A stretch of 54,214 nucleotides of DNA, the filler included, from Sluysia triapertura (taxonomy: Eukaryota), in the NCBI GenBank assembly GCA_046118255.1. It is 4 parts of 4 records of this genome, joined end to end, with 100 filler letters (N's around TTAATTAATTAA, not from the genome) between each part and the next. Parts side by side here need not be neighbours in the genome. Positions count along the whole stretch, not along the records: positions 25,252 to 37,502 come from JBJNIA010125522.1; 3 more parts are not named here. The stretch is one strand, 5' to 3'. Each line of letters starts with the position of its first letter. Within the stretch, counting starts at the first letter, position 1. The notes below the pieces were generated by a model, which saw nothing but the letters and a program-made list of their open reading frames with translations, ran no database searches and had not been told where the DNA came from. Positions 8,972-53,600 of the stretch are shown here, piece after piece. The position numbers were made by a program, and so were the translations under genes.

Positions 8972-9125
8972 TGTTAGACTTCATAAAATGGACTGACCGG
9001 GGATCGAACCCGGGACCATCGTCTGTGCAGTCGATGCTCTACCACTGAGCTATCAGCCCCGTCTAACAATTTCATTTTTAATATATTCAATTATAATATA
9101 TTCAATTATAACAATTACCCCAACA
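8972..9125 (-). mobile_element. tRNA-containing LTR-like element, copy 1 (154 bp)
   Basis: Minus strand begins TGTTGGGGTAA and ends GTCTAACA, like 29414-29573, and shares the internal ATAATTGAATATATT..AAATGAAATTGTTAGAC plus tRNA-like core. Flanks ATTT/AAGT do not form a perfect TSD. Confidence 0.75.
8989..9059 (-). pseudogene. tRNA-like sequence (tRNA-Cys-like, aberrant anticodon arm) inside the element
   Basis: Acceptor GGGCTGA/TCAGTCC, D-arm GCTC-AGTGGTA-GAGC, T-arm CCGGG-TTCGATC-CCCGG, then TTTT. Anticodon region TCGACTGCACAGACGA does not form a canonical 5-bp stem with 7-nt loop. Confidence 0.7.
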
Positions 9126-9974: not shown

Positions 9975-10760
9975 TTATAAATCTGAAAATTGAAAATTAC
10001 TGTCTTTATATAAAGTGCTAATTTTGTCATCAGAAACATTATTAGAATATATTATCAAGCAAATATTATAAATATTATCAATATTATCAAGCAAAACATT
10101 TTGATGTTGTGAAATGAGAATGAAGCGGTGATAAAATAAGTTGTGGGTATGTGTATCATACTGCATAATAGGAGAGGATGTGATGGTGAAGCTTGGGTTG
10201 TGGGAGTAGATAAAGTAAATGGATGTGTCAAATCGTTTATAAAATTGGAATAATTGTGTTGATTGTAATAAGGTGAATGAATAGTAGAAGTAGTAGTTGA
10301 AGTGCTCTAATTCATCAATGCATACATACCAGTAGGATTAGGATAAACTTGATGAGCAGAAATAGTATGACAATTACAGGAGCAACCAGGTAAATACTTT
10401 ATTGATCCAGTACACTTACATGTGCAACAAATATAAGAAGTATTGGGTGTTTCCGTTGATTGTTGAATAAGAAATGGCAATAAAAGATTCTTAACATTCT
10501 AAGATTCATAACTTTCTGTATCAATCACATTAGAAAAAGTTGTTGAAGATACTGAAGGATTCATTAACTTATTTGAAGGTTCAAGATTGCTGGTGTAATT
10601 ATTATTGACTACCACCGTCACCATTATTATTATTATCGTGATTTTTGACTGCTATTTGGCCATATCTAAAGCGTTACCAGTGGTAGAATTTGAATTAAAT
10701 TTAGAACTAGTATCAATATCAAAATTATCTGGATGACACACTTCACATGCTTTCATAAAT
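9975..10760 (-). pseudogene. Degraded Ser/Thr/Asn-rich coding remnant with a Cys cluster
   Basis: Minus-strand translation includes MKACEVCHP and YICCTCKCTGSIKYLPGCSCNCH (~10367-10435); multiple stops. Confidence 0.35.
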
Positions 10761-12889
10761 AATTCTCCGTCACTACCTTTATTGTTGTTTATATTATCAG
10801 CATTTGAATTAGCGATAATTCCGATTCTTTTGCAGTATATTTCGATGAAATACTATCGGATGTAAATCATTAGTAAGACAAAAAAATAAAAGGTAGAGTT
10901 GAAAGTGCTGTTTAGAACGATGTAATGCGAATGGGAGAGAAGGTCAATTTTAGATATTATAGTCTATATAAAAATGTGTGAGGTTACTATGTCCATGAAA
11001 TACATGTAGATGAATTTGATGTGAATTTATGAATAACTGGGACACGACAATATCTATTAAAACTAATAATTTAAGAACCGCTGTGAAATAATACTCTACC
11101 TTATCAATGTAAATCTAATGGATAAAACAGATAATATCTGAAGAGTAGATCCTTTTTTGGCAATTACGTTGGCATTGAAACAACTGTTAAATTGTCATCA
11201 CAACCCTACTAAGATTCCGAAAATCTAATCTAATCTCATTTTTCAATAAAATAACTTATTTTTTAAAAAACAAAGCAATATTTCTAAAAAAAGAAATTTC
11301 TTTACTAAAAATAGAAAAGAACATTCTACAACATTCTATCAATTTCTATTGGTTGATGACTAGCATCAATTTCACAATTTTGACATTTACTTTATTCTCG
11401 GTTGCATGTTTAACTTTCATTGCTACGATTGTATCAATTTCATTATGGTGCCTATTTTTAGTTATTCTGCTCAAGTATTGTCAACAATCAACAGTGGATT
11501 ACGCTTCAAAACAGATTCTTATTTCCATGAATGCGGTAAATTATTTTTTATAAGGAATTTTTACTTTCCCAAAAATTATAAACTCTTACATAAAAATAAT
11601 TTTGTAAATTAGTCTTTTGTTCCGATCTACTGAGGGGAATTTTCTGTAAGTAAAATCAAATAGCAAAATTAAATATTTGTAAATATTATAAATTATAATT
11701 AATCAATCTATGTCAATCTATGTAAATATTTTGGTAAATTTAATTTTAAATATTATAAATTTAGTAAATTATAATTATTTTACTAATTATAATTATTCCA
11801 AGTTATGTAAATATTAATTATTTCAGCAGAGTAAAAAAGTTAATAAACTAATTATTTCAATCTATTTGTTTACAAAATTAATTCAATTTTATGATCGTTA
11901 TTTGTTCACAAAATAAATTAATTCGATTAATTATTTATAATTTGTTAATTTGTATACAAGATTAATTCAATTATAAAATTAATATGGAAAAATATCAGTA
12001 AGTGTCAAGTAATTTTAAAAATATATAAACAGTTTGACACTCAACAAAAAAGGACATTAATCGTTAAACAAATTATCTGAAGAATCAAGGAAAGTTTAAT
12101 TGCTCGAGCGTCTGATTTGGAAATCAAGGGAATTTTTAATTATTCAACAATTGATCATTATAGAAAAAACGTGCAACTGCTGGGACTATTCATTTAAATT
12201 AATTGACAAAACCGAATAATTTTTTGGAACCAAACAACAATTTGCAGATATTTTTCCATGAATAAATATGCTATTTTTGTTAAGACATTGCATTGATACA
12301 TTTGCATTAAAATCAACTTAAAATCTTTTCGTATTCAACTCAAGCATTCGACTGAGTTAAAATCAATCTAAATTCAAGTATATTTGATAAAACTCAAGTA
12401 GAAAGACCTTGAAATATATATTTATATACATTTAATATATTCGAATTTTGTATACATGTATTTGTCAATAATTTATTTATCTTCGAATAATACATTTTGT
12501 TATTTTAATTCTTCAACTTCAGTGTAGATAAACGGACTTTGTAGAGTAAGCTAAATAGTATACTTAATTGATTAAGCAAGACCTAATAGAGTTAATTGAT
12601 TTTAAGTTAATTAAAATAAATAAAGTAAAATATAATAGCGTATCAACCTTCATACTGAGTCAAAATTGATTAAGGAATCTTTAAAGTAGCTTTTGACATT
12701 TGACATCCTGTGAATATGTCTTCGTGCGGTATAAATCGTATATCACAGGTGAACCCGAAGAAATTAATATCATAATTGTTTAGTAAGAAAATCTGAACAA
12801 AATGATACCAACAAATTTTGACAAGTTATCTCAAGATTTTCAAACGCCATATTCAGTCCAGTTATGCTATGATGAATAAAAATTATGGA

Positions 12890-25251: not shown

Positions 25252-27149
25252 AATAACGTTCAACTTATTATATTATTCCAAGTTTTGACCCTTATATCAA
25301 CCCTTATCCTTCACTAATCCCAACAATAGGACAGAGTCAGAATAAAGCAAACTGTAGGGAAGCTGCTTTAGTTCATCAGTAGATAACGGTGAAACTAAAG
25401 TCATTTCTTTAGCAATTAACTAAAATAATCCATTTTCTTTTTTGGACATTGGTTAGTAATACATTTCTTACTGTTCATATTTTGCATTAATACCGTTTCG
25501 AAGATTTAAGTGGTGTCACTCCTGGTTGTGATTTGTTTTTAAAGAATAAACAATAAAGAATAATTTACAATATTGAGAATAATTTACAAATAGAGAATAA
25601 TTTGTATCGTTAGGTTGTAAATTTTGTGATAATTCAAAGAATATATCGAGATTCTGAATTATTGAGTTTTATTAATAATTTGTAAAATAAAGTATTGACA
25701 CAACAAAAGTACATTGTCTGTATATAATGTTCTAAACTAGATAGTAAAATTTTAAAATGCCAATTGTATTGTGAATAAACTTGAAGTATTTTCTAGTGTG
25801 ACGAAGTCAATATATGTTAAAAATTCTCCGTGAATTAGTAATAAAGTGTTTTAAGGTGAAAGTCAGGGATGTATATGATAGACGTTAATTAGATGAATAA
25901 GAAATTATGTAGAATTAACGAATTGTATAAGAATTATCATTCAAAATTCCACTCATATTACAGCCAAAGAAATGCGCATAACTTTGGAATGTTACTCTTT
26001 GTTTTGATACAAAATGGAAAACTAGTTTTAGTTTATCCCAGTATTCGAAATAATTTCAAGTTGAATTTATTTATAACTAAACTTATCTTCTGATTTTTAT
26101 TAAGACAATTGTGGTGGTACAACCTCATAGATTACGTACACCACCCTTACTTTAATCAAAAATCACACAAACTCATTACAAAAATCACACTAAAATAAAG
26201 TACATTTGTAATATTTACACTATTACACCTTTCATCATTAACAAAACATAGACGTGTAATAAGCTCTAACATTTTTTTAATATTCTGTTTATTGATATAG
26301 AAGTAACAATTGTCACGTCATCACTACGTCAACACCACTCCTTTAGTCTATCCTTTTTATACAGAATTATTGTAAATGCATTATACATCGTGTAATATTT
26401 TATATTCAAGATTTATATAGTACTTTTGTAAAGACATCTCTAGCAATTTCTTTCTCAAACGATCTTTCCTCGCGTGTTTGTGCAGAAAATAAATAGTAAT
26501 TCCTGTTCGCAATATCAACAATTCAAACCAGGTCATCAACAACATTTATCATTTTAATTTTAAATATCGGCCAAGGATTTAACTCTTATTTAACCCTATA
26601 ATACTTTCCTACAATGGAAGAACGCATGAAGCATCAAGAGAAAATGTATGAACAGACTCACAAAGAATTTGAAACGGCTGTCACGAAAGAAATTGGTCCT
26701 AACAGTAATTCGAAATGTTTTACTCCCGAAAAACTACAAGCAGCCGCCGATTCGACTAAAGAATTACCGAAACAGATTCGTGGATTTTCATTGGGTAATG
26801 CTGAAACTGCTTGGCCTCAGTGTGAATAGAGTATAAAGTCGAGATGTTTTATGAAATTCATTTATGGACTAATAAAACATTTTCCTTCATCGGTTTCTAT
26901 ATGACATTAGTTTTACAACCAATGTTATTTAGATACCAATTCAGTACTAATCTCAGTTGGTTACAATGCTGGGGGCATGTCAAGTTAAAACTTATCTTTC
27001 ACATTGTCAATCTATACTATAGTTATATTTACCGTTGAACGAACAATTGCTATGACAAAACCACGAATAAAAATAAAAAATGTGTAGTTAATTATTATAG
27101 GTATTACAATTATTATGAAAGTTAGTTACGACAATCACTGTTACATCAA

Positions 27150-28480
27150 TCCAAGTCCACAGAATCATCATATTCCATGAGATAATCATATCGGAATAGA
27201 GAATGGAAGTTGTTGTCTTTACGAAATTTTAGTGAAGACAATAATTGCAGTGTGGACTATTGGTGCTGTCTTTGGTACTGTCGAGTTTGAAGCACGTGTC
27301 AACGGTTTGACAAGTGCTGGATTGGATGATGATGACATCACTGATGGCTTTACCAAGTTTGAAATCTAAGTCAATGATGAAATAGAAAAAGAAGAAGAAG
27401 AGGAAGAGGAAGGAGAAAGAGAGGACACAAGCTTTGGTTTTTTAGGAGAGGCAGTAAGTTTTGAATTAGAAGTAGGTTTAGTAGAGTGAGGTTTCTTAAA
27501 AAGAACAGCAGGAGCATTGTTACAACGGGTGATAAACTGCAAATCTCGCTCCCTTGTATAGTCAAGTAGGGTCACCAATTCTGTGACCATCTGTCGATAG
27601 GTCAACACTGGGAAAATAGATAAGATCAGCTGCAGTGTCTGGCGTGCCCTAAAAAGGGATCATCAGTAGAAAAGGGAACCAAGTTATGGTTAGACATATT
27701 AATGATCCCTCTTAATAATAAGAATTTTGGGGTTCAGCGCCACTAAGATTTTATTGCACAAGATTCCTATTCGTTGTGGACGAACCTCATCGATATCCTT
27801 AGCTAGTCTAAGGTCGACATCCGTAATTGTTTGGATGTTTCGCCTGAAATTTTGGATACGACACCGAGGTCTGATTCGAGCCTCAGTGTGGAGTTGGCGG
27901 CTGTATAGAGTACAGGTTACGCAGATTAAGTGCCATTTATTCAAAAAATCTGTGGCATATTGAAAAGTCACCAATATGAGCCTATCCTCATCATACGCGG
28001 AAAGAGACGGAACGTGCGTATATGAGGAGCCGCTTTTCCAACGGCTCATGTTATCAAGGTCCTCCACGAATGGAAGAAAAGAATGGTCAATAAGAGGAAT
28101 TGAGGGTAAAACAAAAAGAAAAGCAATATGGGTTAGAAATTCATGGGCTTCTACAGCCTTAGTCAACCAGGAAAGGTGAAGTATTGACTGTCTTTCTATA
28201 CGTAATAATAATGGGATTCTCTCGACTACTAAAGTAACCTTAATTGCTCCACGCGCGGATACCACATATGGTGTATCGAAGTCATCAGGCACGTTGGTTA
28301 AACCGTGCCAGGAAATAAGGGGAAGTTCCGACGATAAAGAAAAGATGTTTGTTGCCACATTATCGGTAAATTTGGACTTCACTTTACAGTCCGGGGCAAA
28401 CGAGTTTGGAAAGAATTTTGGGGTAAGGTTTTCGACACAGAATCTATCAAGAGAAGAATAAAAAACGATGATCTGGTTGA
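27150..28480 (-). pseudogene. Relatively GC-rich unassigned coding region (227-aa ORF plus frameshifted continuation with Ser/Pro/Lys-rich tail)
   Basis: ORFs 27699..28382 and 27366..27608 are joined by a coding-like segment (SNHNLVPFSTDDPF*GTPDTAADLIYFPV). Base composition is clearly less AT-rich than the flanks. Confidence 0.45.
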
Positions 28481-28903
28481 TTGTCTTGGCCTATAGTTTT
28501 TTGACTTGTTTTGTGCTGTATGAAGAAAATAAAATTTAAAGTTTCACACAAAAAGGAAAATAAATATATTAAAAAAAATAATGTCATAAGTAATTTTATT
28601 ATTGTATATTAATACTATAATAGGAAACATAGTAATGTTTTAAAAATGGGTTTTTTTACACAGTCGTGCGTTTATCTTATAAAACTTCATCAGTTGGTGT
28701 CTTCAATGATTACGCCTCTGCGACTTTGTCAGCCCTGGTGGCACCTGAAATCCATTATAGAGGATGCCAACATTCGCATTCTTCCGGAGCCCATTATAAG
28801 CTACAACAGGAGTTAAGTTTGGTTGGATATATTTTATAATGAATTTGTAGGATCTACGAAAAACTTTCTTATATTAAATGTAACATTCTTTAATTGTGAC
28901 TCG

Positions 28904-29029
28904 ACATAAAGGAGGTAAAGGAGTTAAGGCGGAGTCAAATAAAAAATATAGAAATCGAAAATGGAAGCGATGTCTACAAGGTATTGTAATGGTTTAATAT
29001 TTGTGGATTGGTCTGCGGCAAATTGAGCA
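28904..29029 (-). pseudogene. Degenerate RING-H2 zinc finger
   Basis: Single frame: CSICRRPIHKY*TITIPCRHRFHFRFLYFLFDSALTPLPPLCRVTI. This is the CxxC...PCxHxFH...PLCR spacing with two ligands lost and one stop. Confidence 0.6.
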
Positions 29030-29413
29030 AAGTGTAAATCGTAATGAAGATTGTGTTGTTTTGCTAAAAATAAAAATTATATAATAAGATAATACTTACG
29101 TAAGAAAGATTAAGTAGTGAGTAAGATTAATTTAAATATAAAACTTAATATAAAAGTTAATTCTCACTAAATTACTAAAATATACTAATAAAAACGTATT
29201 CTTAACCAAATAATTGATACTGTGTGTGATTTTAATAAAATATGAGCTCCAACACCATCCTGCTCACAACCGAAAATTGACAGTTAACAGCCGTCACACA
29301 TGGTTAGTAAAGAGGGAAATGCTATTACTCGTATTTTGTACCTTATATAATTTATACCTTAATGAAAAAGTGATTTTTATGTCTTATAAATAAATAAATA
29401 ATTGCATCGCCTG

Positions 29414-29573
29414 TGTTGGGGTAAAAGGCCTAAAAAGTGCCAAGCAGTATAATTGAATATATTGAAAATGAAATTGTTAGACGGGGCTGATAGCTCAGTG
29501 GTAGAGCAGTCGGACTGCGCAGACGATGGTCCCGGGTTCGATCCCCGGTCAGTCCATTTTACGAAGTCTAACA
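29414..29573 (+). mobile_element. Solo-LTR-like element with internal tRNA-like sequence (Helenus-type TRIM candidate), copy 2 (160 bp)
   Basis: Starts TGTTGG, ends CTAACA; perfect 4-bp TSD CCTG at 29410-29413 and 29574-29577. Removing it restores the protease frame ..LSGVTG-DAII. Confidence 0.85.
29484..29556 (+). pseudogene. tRNA-like sequence inside the solo LTR
   Basis: A-box TAGCTCAGTGG, B-box GGTTCGATCC, paired acceptor/D/T arms, TTTT terminator. Anticodon arm aberrant (GTCGGACTGCGCAGACGA). Confidence 0.7.
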
Positions 29574-29761
29574 CCTGTAACTCCTGATAGATGAGAGGTA
29601 CGATTAGCTAAATTTTTTAATTCATCTTTATTTAAGAAACTTTCATTGATTAAGGAGGCTACTGCTCCTGTATCAATTAGTGCTGCTACTACTCTACCAT
29701 TTATTCTATCATTTACTATTGGTCCTTTTGATCCATTATAATTGTTGTTAGCACATATCAT
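29574..29761 (-). pseudogene. Retropepsin (retroviral-type aspartic protease), interrupted
   Basis: PIVNDRINGRVVAALIDTGAVASLINESF...LSGVTG: catalytic DTGA and flap motif. Confidence 0.85.
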
Positions 29762-31721
29762 ATATGCTGCAAGCGGTGGTAATCTTCGAGTAATAGGATA
29801 TAGTCTTTAGTTGTTTTTATAGTTTTCTGAATTTCAATGCATTCTTGATTTTCTATTATTTCTTCATTTTTACTGTTTTGTAATTGTTGTCTTTCTTCGT
29901 ATATTCCCTCTCTTTTCTTATTGCATTTATTTGGGCATTTGCATGGTGGTGCAAGAGGTATTTTGCTAAAAACGAGAAACATCCAATTATTAATTTCCAC
30001 GTAAATCCTTAGATGTTATAAATTCAGACTACTGAAAAGCTTGAGAAATTATTAAAGCTGTTACCTTTAATTATTATATATTCATATTAGTCCAGAAAAC
30101 GCTTGTCCTAATATTAAAAATTTTCTCCACATCTGTTTCAGTGGATCTTGTGCAGCTCTTTTGAAATGATCGGGTCTCAATATTAATTCGAAATTTACCT
30201 TTCCATTCTTTTCAACTACGATTTATCTACGATTTATCAACGATTTCAGTTAATATTTTTGACCTTTTTATTGGGAATCGTATCTCCCGCCAAGCTGCTT
30301 GAATATCATATAAATGCCAGAATTTTGTATATTTTTTATAGCTAAAAATTTTAGTTTACCCTTTAATTCGGTTAGTCCTATTATTTTTGGAGTTTTTACC
30401 TGGCTCCTATGTGGCAGTGATATCCATAAATTATCATCAATTCTATATTCTGGTGCCATGACATTAGAGCAGTGCATCAATTTTGGTTTGACTTTATTAA
30501 TTTACTCTGGTTACCGGTTCGAGGTATGTTTCTGTTTTACCGTATAATATAGGTAATTCATTCGTGCACTCGGTGGTTGACCTTAATTGCACTTCTACCT
30601 TTTCACATTTGTATGTGTATAATACCTCTCCCATCATCGACCAAAAACTCCTTCTTCTAGTGGTAGTAATGGCGCGACTAAGTCCGGGTTTGTAATAGCT
30701 ATTGCCAATTTTGTGCGTAAAATTTCTTTGTTCAATTGACAATCCCGAGTAACCATAATCTGATAAATTTTTACTAGAGATATCAAACCTAAAGGGTAGT
30801 AGAAATCGATTTTATTATTAAAATAGGCATTTAATTTTGTATTTTTCGTATCAACGTCTTTCTTAGCTTGTTAAATTATTTTTTCTGAGATACAAATTCC
30901 TTGTTAGTAGTCGCTGTTATTTCTTTTCCACAGCGAATTATTCTTCCTTTTGAGATAAAAATCAAACCGTCTTCTTCTTTACTGGCCATTAGTATAATCG
31001 GTGTTTCGACTTCATCTAGTCTCTTTCTTTATATGTGATCAATATTTCTATTTATTTCTTCTATTGGGTATTCATCATTATCTTGATAGATACATTAAAT
31101 TTTATTTGTTTATGAAACATTAGTGGACATTGAAATTTGTCCAATTCATAAGTTAGTGCTGATTCTCCAGTGTCGAAATTGGTTTGATCACTTTTGCAAT
31201 ATGATCGCGACATCATCGTATCTTTTTCCATATCAAATCTCTCGTTAAACGATTTTAGACTCACTACGTAAGTCTCCTTCGTATTCTATCGTTCCTTGTT
31301 CGTATGTCCCATCTATTAATACATTTCCGGCGGTTCTTATATTATAAATTATCTTTTCATTGTTTCCAGTTTTTAATTTATCTTCTTTTGTTAAACTTAT
31401 ATATCCCGTCTCAAATGAATCTCTGCATTGTTTAGGTAATATCTTTAATGGTTTGAGTACATTTGATAATTCTATTATTGATGAATGGCTATGATGACCG
31501 CAATACCAGATTGCCACTGATCGTTTTACCATACATTCATTTATTAGAGTCGTAACTAGGTTACCATCTTGGTAGACACTCATTACTTTAGCATCTTTCA
31601 CTTGTATTCGGTTCGGCCTTGGTTGGTTGCAATCAGATGCTTTTATTGCACTAGTTCTGTTTATGCCGAACATTGCTAATAATATTATAATGAACAACAT
31701 ATTGTTTGTCGAGTTATCCAT
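29762..31721 (-). pseudogene. Chuvirus-type envelope glycoprotein, frameshifted
   Basis: Signal peptide then A.DC; YCGHHSHSS; C..SFETG; AG...DGT; GEVLYTYKCEKVEVQLRSTTECTNELPILY...YLEPVTR; CSNVMAPEYRI..LW; SGIY; TM-like FLILGQAFSGLI (~30085-30120). These are in the order seen in Chuviridae-like G proteins; split over ORFs 31245..31721, 31061..31264, 30497..30742, 30268..30480 and 29758..30000. Confidence 0.8.
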
Positions 31722-31766
31722 TCTTGGTATTGCATTGTTTAATATGTTACCGTTGTTGCCTAATAA

Positions 31767-33500
31767 TTATGTCATTATATCTGTCGGCTCTTCCGTTTTT
31801 TGATTCTTTTTTTCTTTTTTGTTAGTGAGCCAACCTCCTTGATCTTCAATCCATAATTTAGTTTTCTTAATTACAAAATCTATAATCTTATCTATTTTAT
31901 TTCTGGTAACCATTTTTTCTTGGTATATAACATATGTTAAGATTATTTTAAACTTTTCTTCGTCTAATACTTTACCAATTAACTTATTTATTACCACCTA
32001 ATATTGTTCGTTTTCTATAAAATCACTAATATCTTTCTTCAAACTTTCTTATCAATTTATTTATAGAAACTTTGTTGATTTCTCACAGTAACTTTATATA
32101 TTTAGTAAAATTAATAAATTTTTCAGATAAAAGGCATAGATCATTCCTTTAGTGTCTAATTCAATTTCGTCGTCATTTTCTCAATTTATTTTTGACAGAT
32201 CAATAGTATTCTTAACAATAGGTGCGGATATTACATCACTCTCGTCTTCTTTTTATCGTATTTGTTTCCTTATCAACGGTCTCTATATGCAGGTTTTTAT
32301 TAAGGTTCACTATATAATCAGGTGGCTCATCATTTTCTGCTTCAGCATCTATATCAACTACGTGAATATCATCACTCTACATTAATTGTCTTAGTAACAT
32401 ACGTGGGGACTCATTATCTGTTTTATCTATTCCGTTTTTAACATTATCATCATTTGAATTCTCATGCATTATTTCTGCCTTTATCATTTCATCATGGTTT
32501 CATAATGGGTAACCGCAATCTATCAAAAATTATCTAGGTTCTAGAAATATAATTTCACATCCATTATTGGTAGATCATTTAATTTAAGCATATCTATTAC
32601 ATCTTCTAATACTATAGTAACAGGCAATTCCTTAAATACATTTACCAATTCAGCTAGTAGTACGTTAATTTTCATTAATGTTTCAGGTTGCTCTATTCTG
32701 CCAGCTAAACTTATGTTTCTTAATAATTGTCTTGCCTTAAAGCTATGTGGGCTATCTTCCTGACTTAAATAAAGTAAACATGACCGAATACTTTGTCTGT
32801 TAAACATATCTAAATTCATTCAAATTTTTATCCTTATTTTTGCTGTCTGCTAAATCTGAAAGAAATGTATCCACCTCTTTGATCAAACCACTAAATGTGG
32901 TTTTTTGTGTGCTACTTTCTTCTTCATTACCTATAATAATCATTGAATCAATATCTGAATGTATCGTCAATTTCTTCTTGATCGTATGAGCTAATTGTTT
33001 CTTCTTCTTCTAAGTTTAATACACAATCAATATCACTTAATGTTGATTTTCTATCCTCGTCTTTGTCTGTTATACCAATATGCTTCATCCATCTACTTAC
33101 AATTTTTTCGGCATGCTTTCTTTCTTCTTCAATTTGTTGAGCACTTTTAATTATTTTTGATTTTGTTGTTCTTCTATCTCTTTTCTCTACCTATCTTCCT
33201 TTTCCTTGCATAAAGTAATTATGTAAACAATTAATAAACATATAATCTTCAAGCCTAGGTTGTTTCTTTTCTTCCTTAGTTTCGTTTGTATCCATTTTTG
33301 CCATACGAAATTCTCTTAACATCTCTTCCTCTTCATCTGTCAGTATTATTGTGGTGGCCCAGCCTACACCTACCTATATATCACATCAATCATAACTTTC
33401 ATCTACACAAACCTCATGATAAAAAATTACATTATAATAAGTCTGATTTCTATCATTTACAACATTAAACACTCATCCTTATAAAATCTCCGATTCCTAA
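31767..33500 (-). pseudogene. Unknown charged/helical ORF-X remnant upstream of the glycoprotein
   Basis: ORFs 32541..32819 and 31767..31997 plus coding-like frameshifted segments to ~33500, same strand as gag and G. No RT, RNase H or integrase motif seen. Confidence 0.45.
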
Positions 33501-34335
33501 TAAAATCCTTTTTACAAACACCTTCTCATCAAAATAAAACACAGCGCATTGTCAACTTGTCATCATTATGATACAATATCTTTTTATCTGTATTTTACAA
33601 CCTTTATATTTTATATTTCTATATATTTTATAATTTTCTAATAATTTTCTTCTCGCAAAAATATTAAAGAAAAGGCTAAGGTTATTGCAATTGCTACAAA
33701 GATGTACTAGTTTTACTAACTCATTTTCTAAAGATAGTTATTGTCAGTCACCTAAGAAAGTTGTATATACGCAGACAGACAATGACGATTTCCTAAGTGA
33801 AAAGTTAATGGATAATTTGACATTAATAGAATCACTAATTGTAATCATAGATTGTAAATTAACGTGTACCATCATCTCTTATTAATAAAAATCGCAATAA
33901 TTTATCAATTAATCAGGATACAAAACAAATGACATAGGATATTAATAACAAAAAATTAAAAAATTAGCACACCGAAATAATATTCTCGGATTAATTACAA
34001 AACAAATATTATGTTTGGTTATAAATTGTAATATTTTTATAATTTTTATATGCATTTATTAATTATTTTTCCATAAACTTTTGAGCTTCGCATTTTTCGC
34101 ATTTTTGAGTTATAATTTTTTGTTATATTATTTTGTTTCATATCTCAAATTTTGTCTTATTTTTTGAATATTGAGGATTAATTTCAAAATTTCTATATTT
34201 AATTCCCAAATGTGCTTATGTTTTTTATGAATTATCAGATAAATGAAGAAAAATAATTTGTTTAAATAATCGTATCAGCCTAAAATTCAAACAGCGGAAT
34301 AACGGCATTAATCTTTTTTGTCCATTAGGTCAGTT

Positions 34336-35780
34336 ATGAATAATGTAAAAATTGACAGAACAGGTCAAGAGATGTTATTGACATGCGAGTTTATTAAAGA
34401 ACCTTTAGTAATTAGTAAGTTACCTCATATAAATGAATTATTAGCAATAGGCCTATTGTTTATTTGAAAGACAAAAACCCATACATGTGGGATTACTAAG
34501 GAATCCCTAACAATTGGTAAGCAATTCGATATGAATGAATTATTAATTATAGGTTTAGTGTTTACCAAAAAGGCATACCAAAATCCATACATGTGGAGTT
34601 ACCTTTGGAACTGTTTTTAGAAGCTCATTTCTAACCATTCGAAAAACGAACCATTGTATCTGTAATATATTTTTCATAATGACTGTGTCGATTTTGCACA
34701 TATGTGTAGAACGTTTTCAAGTTAAAGATTTTTATATTTCTAAGCCTTCTTATGGTGATTATTATTTAAATGAATTCGTAAATTTGATTTGTGTTGTAAA
34801 GAGAAACGCTGCACTTAAAGTTGTTTTTGTTAACATTGATAAAGTAACTCACCGATATGAATCAGAAGATTTGATTCCATACGATAAGGAAGATGTAAGT
34901 ATTGGTTTAGAAAAGTTAGATAATTCTATCTTGAAAGTTACGTATAGAATAAAAAGTTTACAGTGGAATCAAAACGCAACTTCGTATTATTCTACGTTGA
35001 GTTTGAAATCTAATATCTATAATAATTTTTGTGAAATAATTGTTTAAAGTGTAAATTTGAAATTAATCTTGCAGCACACACAAAATAATAATGTTCCTAT
35101 TCTAAAGAGTTTCAGACTACATAGTTTGTGGAGTTGATCGATTGCATAGAATTGTTTATTTAAGTTTTGTAATTAATTTGTTAAAGAGTAATCAAGTCAA
35201 ACAGGAATATTACTTGCTTGGTATCGATGGTTAGTCAGTAGACCTACAAGTTTACAGTGTTATTTTTCATTCACCTTTTGATTTTAATTTTAGTCTAATT
35301 TTCAAATTAAGTTGATTCAACATTTGATTAAAATTGTGGGATGTTTGTTTTGCTTGTTGACATTAATTACACGATGCATCGTTGTTACAATAATATTACT
35401 TGTAGCTGTACTCCCACAGCCCGATCATCGAATTAAACTTTTTAAATAATTCAGATACTATGAAGTCGAATAGAGAAGGCACTCGTATATCAGGTAAATA
35501 CGTTCATAAAGGACTAAACGTTGCCGAGATTTGTTTTAACCACTTCATTGTTCGTTCTGAATACAATAATCCTTTTATTTTCATGTTTTATCATATAGGT
35601 GTAATTTTTTATCACAAGTTTGGCATTTTAAATGATTTTAAATTTAAAAGGATGAACAAAAATAATAGTTACAACGCAAACGTACGTATTCATCGAGGCC
35701 GGTATAAGGTTTTAAATAATTTTGAAATCCATTATCATTACGATACTGTTTACCTTGTGTATGATTTTTATCACGTCTAA
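34336..35780 (+). pseudogene. Antisense coding remnants nested in the retroelement; N-terminal ~34-aa tandem repeat
   Basis: TCEFIKEPLVISKLPHINELLAIGLLF / TCGITKESLTIGKQFDMNELLIIGLVF / TCGVT starting at 34381, 34483 and 34589; further ORFs 34679..35047 and 35460..35780. Family unknown. Confidence 0.4.
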
Positions 35781-36114
35781 ACCTTATTGTATAACTTATA
35801 TTGTTCAAAACGTTGAGAAGAGTGCATACAATGAACTGATATTCGATAGAGCAATAATTTATAAGGAATGCAAGTCTCATATCATTATAGTTGTTAGTTT
35901 GTTAAATGTGTCACCAATTTTTGTAAACTCATTCTTATTTGTGTACAAAAAAAATTTTTCATGTTACTTTTATTTAAAAGTTTTCCTTCATAAAGAAATT
36001 TTCAAGTGCCTTAAGCACCAATATTGTCCTAACTTTAGTCCTTATATAAATAAATTCCTAGTAATAATATGAGTAACAAAAGAGATAACAATAATTTTAA
36101 TTTCTTAAATTATA

Positions 36115-37296
36115 AAACTAAATCCACAATAATTCTTGGATGACTCTCATATTCGTAATCCTCATACTCCTCATCATAATTACAATTTATTTGTCCTTCA
36201 CTCCTTTTCTTATCGAATCTTACTCTTCCTGGTGAGGTTTGTCTAGAGTTCGACATTCTATTTAAATCTTGCTTGAATGTATTTGACCTTAACCTACTAC
36301 AGTTTAGAGCATAGTGCTCATGCCTACCTCAATTGTGACATACTAAATCACCTTCTATATTTGTTCTAGTTTTATAATTGTTTTTATAGTTTTATCGTGC
36401 AGGACCTTTATCTCTTACTGAAAAATTATTATTAGATTGGTACTAGGCCATCTTGGCTGTGGTCGTTGTTCATACTCTCTGGAGCCCATATTATTTATTT
36501 GTCTCTTCTCAAATCCTCTGTTACTCCTACCAACATTAGTGTGGTTTCTTCCTCTGTTATGCTTAAAATTGTTTGAGTTTCTCCTACTATTTCCTCGAAA
36601 ATTATTGCTACTGTTACTATTATTATTGTTGCTATTAAAACCATTGTCTTATTAAAATTATTATTAAAATTATTAATATTATTGTCTTCAAAAGAATTCT
36701 TATACTTAGGGAATTCATTAAAATTATTTCTCGTATTTTTGTTATCATCCATGTAGCTTATATTTTTTATGCTTTCGTTTTAGTACGTTCAATACTTCTT
36801 AATTTCTTAACCGTGTCTTTAAATGGCATATCCTCGATTAAATTTACATAAATTCGTAGTTCGGGACGTAGCCCATTCCTAAACTTATCTATTAATGTTA
36901 TCTCTCTTCTGTTATCTACAATTCTGGCTCTGGACGCTAAACTTCTAAGCACACAGGTTTCTACACCCATATATTAAGAATTCTTGCATAGTATTTTCCA
37001 GTCTTCTAATGCTATTCCTTCGGTAAAAACATCAACAAATGTGTTCAAATCTTCTTTATGTGCATCTTTTATCTCCTTATATGTTTGTATTGCAACATCA
37101 CTTAAATGGTATTGTATCCTCATAACCTTATCTATTGGTGTCCAACTGTTTGCTTCAGTTAGGCTATCAAATTCAAATCGCAAAGTTCTTCCTCGGCGCC
37201 ATTAAACTAGTGCATTTCTGGAAGTATTACTATTGGCTCAATATTCTGAGTCAATTTAGACATACAGTCTTTAAATTCTTCAAAGGGTACTGTCAT
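36115..37296 (-). pseudogene. gag: Ty3/gypsy-type gag with CCHC zinc knuckle
   Basis: ATG at 37296; LPEM..FNG; FDSLTEANSW...YHLSDVA; LIDKFRNGLRPELR; Asn/Arg-rich linker; CHN*GRHEHYALNC (CX2CX4HX4C with one Cys changed to TGA) at 36299-36340. Confidence 0.8.
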
Positions 37297-37502
37297 TGTA
37301 AAGTGAGTTACTTCTTAAAGTTCTCTTTTATTTCTTCTTAGTGTTTAGATTTTATCTTAAAACAATTATAAATTTTATGCTCACTGAGTTCGCCTATAAT
37401 CTAAGTTTTATATCCTACGGAAGATTTAGTTATAGGTAAGTCAAAAGTTTCTACGAAAAGTGTTCCTTATGTCTTAGACGGAGGGTCTTTAATTGCACTT
37501 AC

Positions 37503-37602
37503 NNNNNNNNNNNNNNNNNNNNNNNNNNNNNNNNNNNNNNNNNNNNTTAATTAATTAANNNNNNNNNNNNNNNNNNNNNNNNNNNNNNNNNNNNNNNNNN
37601 NN
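37503..37602. other. Assembly gap with artificial linker
   Basis: N44-TTAATTAATTAA-N44. Confidence 0.97.
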
Positions 37603-40237: not shown

Positions 40238-41400
40238 TTATTCAAAAAAAACGGGACTAACCGAATCATCTCTGGATATATATTCCGGTAGAGTGTGTAG
40301 AGTGTCAAATAATCCATTATCACCAGCATCTGTATAGTAACCATCTGTACGACCAGTACTTATCATACCTTCTAATTCTAAATTCCGAGGAGTGTTATCA
40401 TTATCCTCCCATTTTTCTGATGATATAGTAACCAACTCTTGGGTTGGAATTGTTCTATTTGAATCGCAAACACCATTACTACGTGAACTGGCTTTACCAC
40501 TATCATCTGTTATTAATAAATTTGTAGCAATTGTTACATCATTCGCATTATCAGCATTGGTATCATTACCGAAAACGGTTTCTTTAGGAATACTTTGTAA
40601 AATATTGTGCAAATTAAAACTACCATAAGTTGGTGATAATATTTCTTTCAGTCTTGATTTATTATTAAGTAAATAGTTTCGTAAAATTTTTTGCTTAATT
40701 TCATTTTTCAAAACATCAGATACTAATTGACAATCGTCTGTGTCTTGTAAATTTTGTTGAGTTAGGCCATCTGTTATAATTGAACTCATTTCTGATTCAA
40801 ATATTGGACCTGTTGGAACCGTAGCGCCAGGTTTCATAGTGGATACCAGATTTCGTTCTATGAAATTCATTTGTGTTTTTTTAGTAACCAAATTTTCATC
40901 ACAAACTTCAACATATTCACTTTCATTTTCCTGTTCTTTAGTTTCTACAATCGATATTGCTTCTTCCATTGTATGAAATGATTCATCATTAGAACTAAAT
41001 TGACATGATGATAGAAAATTATCTACTTTAGTTATTAAAATGTCATCATTTTCTTTGTTATCTGAATAATAATTGCGTGATGAGTGCATTTCGTTATCAG
41101 AATAATGTTCTTCTAACTCATTCGAATGATTTTTAATAGGTTCTGTTTCGTTCATTTGTTTATTGGTTATTTTATTGGATACGTAATCTGTCATTTGTTG
41201 AGTATTTGTGTTAAGACTGGTACAAGTTTCTGTTTCATTCATTATATTTGTTTCAAATGATAACTTTTTAGATAACGATTCTAGAAAATTTTCATAATCA
41301 CGAATAGAATTATGCTTTGGTTCCAATACTTTTGTAATAGGTGTAATATCTTTTGTAATAGGGGTAGCTGATATTTGTACAATTTCATTGATCTTATTTT
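40238..41400 (-). CDS. Host gene of unknown function, last coding exon (7 of 7 visible)
   Basis: Acceptor TTTTCTTCAG, phase 1, open through the 362-aa ORF to TAA at 40238; acidic Ser/Thr/Asn-rich. Confidence 0.8.
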
Positions 41401-44269
41401 CTGAAGAAAAATAAGAAAATGTATTTTGAATTACTTTAATGCTGCTTTTATCAAAACAAGGTAATATAAAAATATCTTTTCCTTTTCAAAAAATTTGTTT
41501 TCAACATAATTAATATCATGTGTTATGTGCGAAACTTTTGATGTTTTACCAAAGTAAATTTTAAGTTAGAGATCAAAGATAACAATAAAATAGTTTTTAT
41601 GAAATTTAATAACTTTACCTTCACTGCCTATAGATTTCAAAAGTTCTAAAACTTCTTCCGGAATTTCAGATATTATATTTATAAAAAATCGCTATTGCCG
41701 ATTTTATTTGAAGATCTAACATCCAATTCTTCAAATGCATTTCTAATTCAAACGAATAATCAACTATGTTGTCATGCTTTTGGTTGATCGTGTACTGACA
41801 CTAATTGATTCTGTTTTCTCTATTTTGAATGCGCCGTTTACTTATATTAAATGTTCTTGAATTTCCATTAGAATATTCTACGACCCCTAAATAAGATCTT
41901 TTAGTTATTTTTCATCATTAAAATTAGTACTATGGTGATTACGATCATTCCTTTCTTCAAATTAATATTTGTTTAGAGGTCGATAACCAGTGCTTAACAT
42001 AACATATTAAAACATCATCTTGTTTTAATGATGTGGTTTTCACAAGATCTCAGTCGATATTATATCGACATATAGATGAACGGGCTATTATGTATACGGT
42101 TTTATGTTTCTTCCGAATTTCTAATATTCGTATTACTACCAAATTAAACTACAGAATCATGAATAAACATTTTTCATTAAATTCACACATGGGAACAACT
42201 ATCCTTTTCGTTGATTTGAATATATTACTAAAATTTCCAAATGACCTTGCATAAACGAGAAATTTAAAGTTTTGTAGATAATCAAACGTAATGGATATAA
42301 ATATAACCATCTAAATAGTAAGACTAATTTCTAGCATTCCCAAAAACCAAAAATAAAAATCTTTTGTGGTACTTCTATATTTTTAATTACAATAGTTACT
42401 CTACCTAAATAATTTTAATTTAAACCATCGAAATTCTAACTCAATTATCTCAATTCTTCAAATTTTGTCACTTAAATTTCTAATTTGATACTTCTTATAA
42501 CCACTTTTCAATCTTTTGGAATAATGAGTTAACATTCGAAAGGGCAATTACAAAACTTGGAGACTGACCCGTTAGTACCGACAGATTATTTATTAAACAA
42601 CATACTTATGATATGATATTTAAGTAAATATGTAGCATTATTATAATAAACAAAATTAACATTTTAAAATAAAATAATTAACAATACATAATCAAGAATT
42701 ATGTAAAATTATCACTTTTGAATTAAAGGCATTAATGAGTTATGTTCATTTCATTTGATACTGCAACACTGGAGCCAAATTTTAAATTTAGGAATGTTAA
42801 ATGCAATTACTTGCAGATCATATATGCCTTTATAAAACATTTATAAGAACAAAAACAAATAATAAGGATGAGAATGAAAATTGACATTAAAAATTCAAAA
42901 TAAAAATAGAATAATAATAATTAATAAATAGAAACAAAAATAAATTTTTTTAAATTAAAAAAAAATTTACAATATTATTTTTTTACAAATTCGTAAATTT
43001 TGATTTTTTATTGCAATAAATTTAATATATCGAAGGTTAAGTAAGGTTGAAGATGATTTTAGAGTTATAGCAGCACAATTATAAAACTAAAACTTTACTA
43101 AATATTACTAAAACGATTACGAGAAAATACTACTTTTTCAATTTTAATAACTTTTTTTAGTTTAAATTATATTAAACAAAAAATAACCAATATTTTGTAC
43201 AAGCAATAATTTAATCATAAATAAAATGTAATTGCAATTATTCGAATTACAAAGAAACTGAAGATGTAGATGTCAAACATTAGACTGATGCATGCAAAGA
43301 ACGATTTTATACGTATACTGATAAAAGCAAAGAAAAGTAAAGAAGATCTGGATGATAAGAATATCCAAGAAAGTTATCATATGGCCTATAAAAATATGAA
43401 TCAACTTAAGCATCCCATTTACATTAGTATCATTTTTGCTTTTTGTTTTTTACGTTGTTGGTTAAGAGATTATCAAGCAAAATGACAAATCGAATCAAGT
43501 CTAAAAATATTTATGTGAACCTAACACTTGAGTGGCAGTTTCAATTAGTACAGATGCTTTTATTGAATTCCATCATATCAAATTCACTGATTATCTCAGA
43601 AAACGTATCGGGTTATGAAAATCCTAAGAATCATGTTGATCATTTGGCAAGCAATTCTAAGGATAATTTTGGAATGGAATTTGTTACAATTTTATTTACT
43701 GACGATCTCGATGGTGACAAAAAAACTGTATATTTGTTTAATTTTTGAGTATGATTATTAATTTATGTTTTAATTTATATATGTTGAATTTTTGTCCGAT
43801 GTTTTTGAGTTAATTTGCCAACATAATTTTGTACAACTTTGTTGCTAGGCCTTAAGCCAGTTTTTAAACCAGTTACCACACAAGATTTAAGTAATAAATT
43901 AAAATTTTTAATTCGATATTTAATTAAAATATCGAACAAATTTATGAAAGAAAATTTTAAAGATTAATAAAAATAAGAATTCAAAATATAATGCACATAT
44001 AATTTCATAAATAAAATGACAATAGTTTCCAAAATGCATCCCGCGGAAGTATTTTACATTGATAATTTGAAAGCTGTGATTAATAAAATGGACATTTTCA
44101 AAGCATGCAAAGTTATTACAATTAATGTAATATATGTTAATGATAATAGCTGAAGATGACATACCTAGTTGGAAAACAATTGATCTGTTATCCAGGAGAT
44201 ACTAAATTCTTTTGAAAATCTTTGGTTAATTATTTATTATTCAAAATATAACTTTTGCATAAAACTAAC

Positions 44270-44425: not shown

Positions 44426-45693
44426 CTATTAAATAAGAATTATTATTACCACTCTATTAAAATTAAAGCAAAACAATGAAAATTTTTGCATGAAATTTTC
44501 CATCTTACTATTTAAATGCAATAACATTTTAGAGGATTATTATTAAAAACAATTTTAATAATACATTAGCTACTTATTAATAATGAAAAGCCAGTATAAT
44601 GTGGAAAAATATGATTTATAAAATTTTATGGTTGTCATATCGAAACAATAATTGGTGTGATTACAATAACACTTATTACTGAAGATAGTAAAATGAACTA
44701 CTTTAGTGGAATTCTGCAAATTATGAATAATTTTTTTAATTTTAATATAACAAATATGGTAGATTTCAATTGTCAATGAAATGTGTTCTTTTCGTGTACA
44801 ATAAATAATTAAAGTTATTCTACTTTTCATTACTAAAACGATTTTGAACTTGTCGAAGAAAATTATATTTAAAAAGTTAGCCAACAGCTAAAATAATAAA
44901 AACTTACTGAAAATGCAGAAAAATTTCGTGAATTTACAATATAACTAATTAATAATAACAATTGTATTAGAACAGTGTTACATTATTTGTAACATCAATA
45001 ATGATATTCTCTATGGAAAACTCTATAGTTTATGTTCTATTGATAAATCCTTCAATTCTATTCTACTATAAATTTCTATTATACAGTTCTACTCTTTAAT
45101 TCTATTCTACAGTTAAATTTTATTGGACGGGCAGTTAATATCACATAAACGATTCTAGTATATGCATTGTTGTGATAATATAGCTACGTTCATCTATATA
45201 TATTAATAATTTGTTTTCTCTAACTATAGTTTGGCTGTATTATGCTGTCATTCATTCTATTCATTTAGTGGTTATGTGTTTATATGTTAGTATTGGATAT
45301 GTGTTTGTTAGTATTGGTTTTTCCACTTCTATTTTAATAAAAGCAATAAGGTCCTCTATCTTCCAGTGTTTCTGTCCTATCTGTAACATTTGCTACTTGC
45401 TAATTAAATGTCACGAGTCTATCTTTTATCCTCTTTCTTTTTCTCAGTATATTTAAGTATATTTTTTTAAAGCCATTGAGATATTTTATTAAAATTTCTA
45501 ATACATTAGTTTTTTAAATTCACTAGAAAATTTTTTCACAAAAAGTACTTTGAAAATAATAGTAGTAAAAGTAATTATAAATTCAATCACTAAAATGTAT
45601 TTTAAAATGTCTCTGATTTATAATATATAATTAAATCGTTTTTGTCTTGTAATTTTGATTACCCATTTAATTTTTTAAGAATATAATTTTAAC

Positions 45694-46170
45694 CTTGATC
45701 TGAATTGTTTAATTTTGATGTTAAGGTAATTTTAGTTATATCTTCGCACCAAACTGATCTTTTGTCGGATCCGTAAGATACCAAACTTCCATTACTTTGT
45801 AATGTAGTTGAATTTTTCTGTGATACGACTGATGTTGGTGTTTGATTCTTTAAGGATATTATTTGCGCAAAAGATTCATTTGAATGTCTCGTTGATGTAG
45901 GATGACAATTAATTAAAGATTTGACGCTTGATTCTGATTGAGTGGAATGAAAAGATGATTTAATTGGTTGTTCAGGAATAGATTTCAAGGACTGCAAAGA
46001 TGTTGATGTTAATGAAGATGTTGATGAAGATGTTGATGTTGATGAAGTTTGAGAAAATTGTTGATATTGTTCTAATAAGTCCCGAAGATCGATTTTAGTT
46101 AAATCTCGTTTAAACCACGAAGGTAGTTCGGAAGATATGTGAGAATTATCAAGCAAATCTAAATTCTTAA
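45694..46170 (-). CDS. Host gene exon 5
   Basis: TTTTTAACAG acceptor, GTTAAA donor, phase 1/1; covers the Ser/Thr-rich ORF 45689..46156. Confidence 0.75.
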
Positions 46171-46269
46171 CTGTTAAAAATCATACTTAAATAGGTTAAA
46201 TACTAGAAACTATATTTTATACAGAAAATCAAAGAACATGTAACTCTTGTTCTTCATTTTTAAAACATT

Positions 46270-52659: not shown

Positions 52660-53600
52660 GAGCTATATCATGCCCTTTCAGTAACTCGAAATGATTATCA
52701 TCTTTTGCAGCCAAATAATATTGTAAAGGATTAGACCATAAATCATCTTGTATCGCTTCGCCAAATTCCACCAAAGCATTAGAAATATCAGGTGTAAACT
52801 ATTGCATGAAACTAAATGTTCTCAGTACTATCCGGAATTGATGAGAGTGTTTCTAAACTTGAAGAATCATCATTGTTAGTAAAAGTTAATTCAGAAATAG
52901 ATCTAGAGTTAATTCGATACTTTAATACAGCCAAACTATTCTGGAATCTATCACCACCCGTGTAATCGATTTCCCCACGATCCCAATGTATTCTGTCATT
53001 ACATTCTTGTTCATGAAACTCTTCATAGTTGCTTGATTGGTTGTTGATTGGCAATTGTTGACAACTCCATTTCTTCTTGTTGATGTTGAGTTGAGGTTCA
53101 TGATGCTAGTGATGCTGGTTATGTTCGTTATGCTTGAGATGGTGCTGTTCAGTCTGAGGAGGTTCATGATGTTCGTGATAATGCTGTTGAGGCTGAGAAG
53201 GTTTATGATGACACTGATGTTGAATATGTTCGTGATGATACTGCTTTTCTTGTGGTGTTGTCAAATAAGATGATTGTTTATAAAATATATGATGTTCAGT
53301 TTCTTCAACATTTGCTGGCATCGGTGGTTCCAGTGAAACTGACTACCAAAGATACAATTGGTTCAAATAATGAAATGTCTAAACTCGAATGTGATGGAAT
53401 ATTATTTTTTATGGGTGTGGAATTGTCAAAATGTAGCTCTAATTTTTGTTTGCCCAGAACTTTCAGTTTAGTTTTTGCTTTCTTCTATAAGTTCAAATCT
53501 TTTAGCAAGTAATACTACAGAGTCAATCTAGGTATTATTTTCTAATTCTCTAACTAAATGTCGTACTTCAGATTCAATGAAACTTGTGGATTTTCGATAC
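52660..53600 (-). pseudogene. Divergent intronless SET/TAF-I (NAP family, TSPY-like) histone chaperone pseudogene
   Basis: SFMQ*FT...EFGEAIQDDLWSNPLQYYL matches the SET C-terminal SFF.WF...LGEVIKDDIWPNPLQYYL. Upstream FMNKNVMTEY..SRIVW and LAKRFELI are collinear with NAP-domain motifs. Conserved Trp codon is TAG; several stops. Confidence 0.75.
53090..53250 (-). repeat. Degenerate coding-like tandem repeat inside the SET pseudogene
   Basis: Recurrent CAGCATTATCACGAACATCAT(G/A)AACC-type units; His/Gln-rich in one frame, Ser/Ile/Thr/Asn-rich in another. Confidence 0.6.

Follow-up and report, generated by a model that had tools for sequence, protein, structure and literature searches.

We examined a 54,214-nt stretch of DNA (hereafter the window) from the Sluysia triapertura genome assembly GCA_046118255.1, which carries on its minus strand, in order, a gag remnant, an accessory region (region X), a chuvirus-like envelope fusogen (env, or glycoprotein G) and a retropepsin protease (PR), all four parts of a retroelement that an initial annotation had read in this order. 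The order was borne out in the window, and in natural relatives env, PR, reverse transcriptase (RT), RNase H (RH) and integrase (IN) occupy one open frame. The copy is very probably a dead, 3'-truncated member of a high-copy Ty3/gypsy family with the layout gag-accessory-gB-type env-protease; the family likely belongs to the flatworm errantiviruses related to Burro, and intact members are predicted to encode one Gag-X-Env-Pol polyprotein. Every part of the copy contains stops or frame changes. Point decay, a 2.8-kb insert and, where the copy is truncated, a short interspersed element (SINE) have destroyed its coding capacity. The initial annotation had missed both inserted sequences as well as a likely Bcl-2-like segment at the end of region X.

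The glycoprotein had been described as near full length, and it was recognized by the PF24664 (Monjiviricetes_fusion) profile together with a signal-like hydrophobic stretch (31700-31644) and a membrane-proximal motif at 30129, but stops and frame changes split it over all three frames. Four PF24664 fragments are collinear, covering profile positions 34-153, 297-368, 372-417 and 425-479 (E 1.3e-10, 4.4e-6, 3.2e-11 and 5.1e-5), with a separate match at profile 425-559 (E 1.6e-9), and collinear tblastn matches to relatives reached E 6e-75. Hydropathy plots showed a peak after the ectodomain in all eight relatives examined and a signal-like peak above threshold in four of the eight and in the window. 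The suggested gB-type nature of this chuvirus-like fusogen is supported, the likeness to gB coming through the structural model of a relative, P0001 (mean predicted local distance difference test score, pLDDT, 64). Herpesvirus gB made up 40/40 of the PDB matches listed for this model (best E 1.5e-12, with TM-scores of only 0.15-0.20), and in a viral library chu-like virus glycoproteins came first, the best being that of Tacheng Tick Virus 4 (E 9.5e-38).

To place the copy among other proteins, a full HMMER scan was run with the tail of X plus the start of G as query, which returned 27 proteins at E <= 0.001. PF24664 was present in 14/14 of those scanned, 13 short ones (104-318 aa) having been left out, and the nearest relatives share ~30% identity. 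The order of domains was counted in P0002, P0003, P0004, P0005, P0006, P0008, P0028 and L001, of which P0004 and P0028 fall in one 90% cluster, P0028 being included as a cluster member, and L001 is a metagenome locus, the one confirmed among 51 candidates. In 8/8 proteins that contain both, G lies ahead of the first protease within a single open reading frame (ORF), and the CCHC knuckle comes before G in 4/4 proteins that contain these two. The proposed G-Pol polyprotein was likewise found: G, PR, RT, RH and IN share one ORF in four relatives, with the knuckle also ahead of G within the 2,627 aa of P0003, and with one or more proteases after G in P0005, P0028 and L001 (a 3,426-codon frame). 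The window protease, a DTGA retropepsin lying after the fusogen as annotated, matches the protease domains of relatives, and its distance from the membrane motif is 150 codons compared with 146-202 aa in seven of the eight relatives and 389 in the eighth. Because the same order and spacing recur in independent natural ORFs, the gag-X-fusogen-protease order is not a local accident, and the G/PR junction is not confined to this locus, an outcome that would have spoken against env preceding pol.

The Ty3/gypsy assignment also held in the relatives: the Pol of P0029 has Ty3-G Gag-Pol as its best PDB match (E 1.9e-122). BEL/Pao elements are typically marked by the Pfam families Peptidase_A17 and DUF1758/1759. 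Membership of that group was rejected, the relatives' Pol being Ty3-like and their scans containing no BEL/Pao-typical Pfam family. In the window itself, the Ty3/gypsy features found were the gag with its degenerate CCHC knuckle and the retropepsin, while features of GAG-ENV-POL elements with gB-type env were an env after gag and before protease and a gB-type ectodomain between signal and transmembrane segment.

The abundance of the family was assessed with contigs of one public run (X1) mapped on 25300-37500; this run may be the window's own source and so not independent. Summed depth, which is not a copy number, was 15,000-92,000 over gag, X and G against ~20 on single-copy records, and shows a high-copy family. 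No RNA dataset was among the public runs listed with part of the stretch.

Table 1. Parts of the element copy and the sequences inserted in it.
Feature	Positions	Strand	Evidence
gag remnant, broken	36110..37300	-	tblastn to gag of relatives, profile, motif
Accessory region X, broken coding remnant, 1,578 nt	31767..33344	-	Six-frame translation; high contig depth
Bcl-2-like segment (likely), ending in a BH2-like GGW motif	31794..32018	-	PF00452 E 0.046 and 0.15; relatives' profile
Class III (gB-type) fusogen like that of chuviruses, broken but near full length	29890..31720	-	PF24664; collinear tblastn with relatives
N-terminal half of a DTGA retropepsin, cut off at the SINE	29574..29806	-	PF00077 E 3.5e-5; PF13975 E 2.4e-5
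Secondary insert, 2,779 nt, not part of the element	33350..36128	.	TG...CA ends, 5-nt flanks alike 4/5, contig depth
tRNA-derived SINE-like insert, where the protease ends	29448..29573	+	ARAGORN and Rfam RF00005 at 29484-29556

A CCHC gag had been annotated, and the gag stood: by tblastn, 37177-36788 matches the gag of P0027 (E 8.5e-7) and 37156-36854 that of P0008 (E 5.6e-6), and a two-sequence gag profile matches the remnant at E 6e-12, with no match to the remnant in Pfam. The knuckle (36340-36299) is degenerate, having a stop at its second Cys position. Gag had also been placed next to X, but an unrelated insert lies between them. Bins wholly inside this insert have a summed contig depth of 153-1,322, and Pfam matched neither of its plus-strand ORFs (34559-35047, 35406-35780). 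The insert is moderately repeated and likely a solo-LTR-like piece (LTR, long terminal repeat) of another family. It is absent from other copies, since two contigs run straight from 33344 to 36133. With the insert removed, the knuckle is 657 codons from the start of G, compared with 652 aa in P0027 and 664 aa in P0006; the distance is shorter in P0008 and P0003 (367 and 401). Region X itself, described initially as an unknown ORF of ~1.7 kb, exists as a remnant with many stops and frame changes and is not open; a single stop codon separates its end from the start of the fusogen, which continues in the same frame.

The segment at the end of X is likely Bcl-2-like, judged from sequence similarity. 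A profile built from three relatives ranks it first in the window (E 0.0014), and it closes on a GGW motif that we take to be BH2-like. The aligned segment of P0001 matches PF00452 at E 9.6e-4 and BCL-XL at E 4e-4, second to a designed repeat protein, and the corresponding scores of P0027 and P0002 are 0.055 and 0.2. L001 carries the GGW motif in a segment without a Pfam match. Domains in P0027 run gag-CCHC-ubiquitin-like (E 0.031)-Bcl-2-like-G; a ubiquitin-like unit is not claimed for the window, where a 92-aa fragment of X does not match P0027 (E 2.7). A PDB sequence search with the window X tail returned no Bcl-2 protein up to E 10, and the ESM Atlas gave no usable match for the X tail or for one flanking ORF. 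Folding the X tail with the G start gave a low-confidence model (pLDDT 34), for which Foldseek found no match at E <= 0.001, Bcl-2-family proteins made up 9/47 of the rows listed, with E values of 6-9, and the best VIA structure comparison (Z 5.0) was unrelated.

The layout of this element is already published, and the window copy is one more decayed member of a described group. In planarian Burro (GYPSM1), described in 2019, env lies between gag and pol in the same frame, the whole series Gag-BCL2-env-PR-RT-RH-IN being encoded in one ORF (Arkhipova and Yushenova 2019, PMC6431247). Like the window copy, Burro has a CCHC Gag, an accessory region, env and then PR; its accessory region has a BCL2-like motif, to which the likely Bcl-2-like segment of the window would correspond, and like the family it is of high copy number, with decayed fragments carrying stops and frameshifts in Dugesia japonica (PMC6431247). 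Burro env gave hits to mononegavirus fusion glycoproteins and was likened to gypsy Env by HHpred (PMC6431247), whereas the window env matches PF24664 and, through a relative, gB. Burro is also a giant element of >30 kb, with an ORF1 of 4,873-5,140 aa containing MATH, BIR, ankyrin, SUMO-like and dUTPase domains (PMC6431247), whereas the window copy lacks LTRs and Pol and has ~660 codons from knuckle to env, in which none of these domains was detected.

Ty3/gypsy elements with gB-type env have further been described from many phyla (Chary and Hayashi, eLife RP108449, PMC13524379), with GAG-ENV-POL order in three of them, Nematoda, Bryozoa and Platyhelminthes (Smed_errantivirus_1-6). The same paper recovers 114 arthropod gypsy elements with Chuviridae-like baits, gives 45 and 215 copies for two Schmidtea families and argues for an ancient acquisition of env. 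These elements resemble the window copy in having a gB-type env before pol and, as seen in its relatives, a Ty3/gypsy Pol; they are intact, whereas the window copy is broken and truncated, and the term 'Bcl' is absent from the main text of PMC13524379. Three short motifs of the window env occur five times in the gB-type env table of that paper, all in Schmidtea mediterranea rows. Other systems are more distant. The nematode Metavirus endogenous retroviruses of Sacco et al. 2022 (as cited in PMC13524379) have a flipped env and pol order like the window but nematode hosts, a likeness by description only. Anakin elements and solitary Jingchuvirales G endogenous viral elements (EVEs) (PMC10084718, PMC7642597) similarly combine an LTR retroelement with a chuvirus-like glycoprotein, either inside it or next to it, but the Anakin backbone is BEL/Pao and solitary EVEs involve no capture, whereas relatives of the window copy have a Ty3-like Pol; for insect Jingchuvirales G EVEs, PMC10084718 describes only fragmentary gypsy associations. 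Troyka (PMC12440569) was rejected as unrelated.

Several points weigh against our assignment. First, the Ty3/gypsy placement rests on relatives with only ~22-39% identity in G, because the RT, integrase and LTR of the family itself were not seen. Second, Burro and the Smed errantiviruses were compared by description and short motifs, not by alignment; the motifs were chosen after seeing the Schmidtea rows, so that their sharing is a lead and not a test, and alignment gaps could hide matches elsewhere. Third, all Bcl-2 scores lie below the Pfam cut-off, the GGW motif occurs in 3/10 proteins checked plus L001, and the Bcl-2 profile comparison is partly circular, two of its three relatives having been found with a query that contains the segment. 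Lastly, none of the BIR, MATH, ankyrin and dUTPase domains described for giant Burro was detected in the window, where a domain search in X is less sensitive because X is decayed.

A more specific reading, which we consider unlikely, is that the copy represents a compact Burro-related family, possibly with a host beyond the reported planarians, combining a Bcl-2-like accessory unit directly before a gB-type env, one Gag-Env-Pol polyprotein and very high copy number. If true, an enveloped retrotransposon would here be carrying an apoptosis regulator of its own. Burro1 has been reported, second-hand, to protect planarian stem cells via an IAP-like domain (PMC13465017), and its function and expression are mentioned in PMC13465017 and PMC8532177; this question would be extended by a Bcl-2-like unit conserved in a smaller sister family, but the broken window copy cannot answer it.

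We give little credence to the same architecture belonging to a separate lineage in a non-flatworm host, with its own acquisition or rearrangement of a chuvirus-like env. Elements with GAG-ENV-POL order are not monophyletic in the published Pol tree (PMC13524379) and identity to the nearest relatives is only ~30%, as such an origin would allow, but a Bcl-2-like segment directly before env is the Burro order, and the env motifs are common to the Schmidtea rows and not to the insect row shown (PMC13524379). It is very improbable that Env and Pol are separate ORFs coupled by termination-reinitiation at an ATGA overlap. The overlap, noted initially, is indeed present at 29761-29758, but G and PR share one frame in 8/8 relatives, similarity in the protease frame extends upstream of the ATG of the overlap to 29779 (E 0.004) and 29800 (E 3.6e-4), and the copy has many other frame changes; the overlap is probably a by-product of decay. 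Least probable, and already largely refuted, is that the parts are chance neighbours, brought together by insertions in tandem or inside one another, by a lone chuviral EVE lying next to gypsy remains, or by misassembly: at least two secondary inserts lie at the locus, an N gap adjoins it, insects commonly have solitary chuviral G EVEs with flanking gypsy fragments (PMC10084718), and among the contigs listed none is shown outright to span the G/PR junction, but independent natural ORFs repeat the order and spacing, gag, X, G and PR are all at very high depth and the insert is not, and two contigs join gag to X.

For this group of elements, the placement of env within the Gag-Pol polyprotein implies that both the membrane topology and the way in which Pol is packaged differ from those of retroviruses. 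In intact members, Gag and the accessory region would be made in the cytosol as the start of the polyprotein, and the internal signal stretch would then thread the fusogen ectodomain into the lumen of the endoplasmic reticulum. Signal peptidase would cleave this stretch, and transfer would halt at the transmembrane segment. Pol would thus be synthesized on the cytosolic side, still joined to the tail of Env, until the element's retropepsin released it. The class III fusogen is predicted to give particles entry into other cells, and a possible role of the Bcl-2-like segment is to dampen cell death in the host.

The protein database searches differed in sensitivity: word-index searches returned nothing for the N-terminal piece of G or for the X tail plus G, blanks that reflect low sensitivity because the full HMMER scan found relatives. 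Searches of viral contigs with a piece of G (88 candidates) and of genome contigs with P0003 (21 candidates) yielded 0 confirmed hits each. P0003, a Gag-Env-Pol polyprotein on a 9,084-nt contig, is labelled as from a 'Flavobacteriaceae bacterium' metagenome-assembled genome and is likely eukaryotic contamination of a bacterial bin. P0028 is 4,844 aa long and has ankyrin repeats. Several protease-like D[TS]G motifs occur in P0028, P0006, P0005, P0002 and L001, up to eight in P0028, two of them after the integrase. After its integrase, L001 has a separate 496-codon ORF (10617-12107, plus strand) that matches the RNase_T exonuclease family (PF00929, E 1.4e-5) and is likely an accessory gene of that locus. 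A repeat pair corresponding to LTRs was not found in L001, which is cut before an LTR could appear.

The element lies in AT-rich DNA, with a GC fraction of ~0.24-0.25 outside it and 0.29-0.33 inside. Three N gaps interrupt the window, one of them (37503-37602) directly upstream of gag, where neither the 5' end of the element nor any LTR was seen. When the window was searched with Pol parts taken from three relatives, neither RT nor RNase H nor integrase was found after the protease, and a repeat-pair search of the window found no LTR pair, the copy being cut before an LTR could appear. A second copy of the SINE lies at 8972-9095 with 96% identity over 126 nt to that at 29448-29573, and ARAGORN called one copy tRNA-Arg(gcg). 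Pfam matched 0/68 flanking ORFs. Downstream of the element, in a GC-richer stretch (0.41), a 263-aa open frame (27699-28490, minus strand; ORF 27702-28490) without a Pfam match or a homolog in a word-index protein search is possibly another mobile element, and another frame lies at 27366-27659. Upstream, minus-strand open frames at 40238-41485, 45689-46180 and 52812-53105, without Pfam matches, may be host exons. A short, separate RT-like fragment lies on the plus strand at 838-968 (E 0.002 against P0003 Pol).

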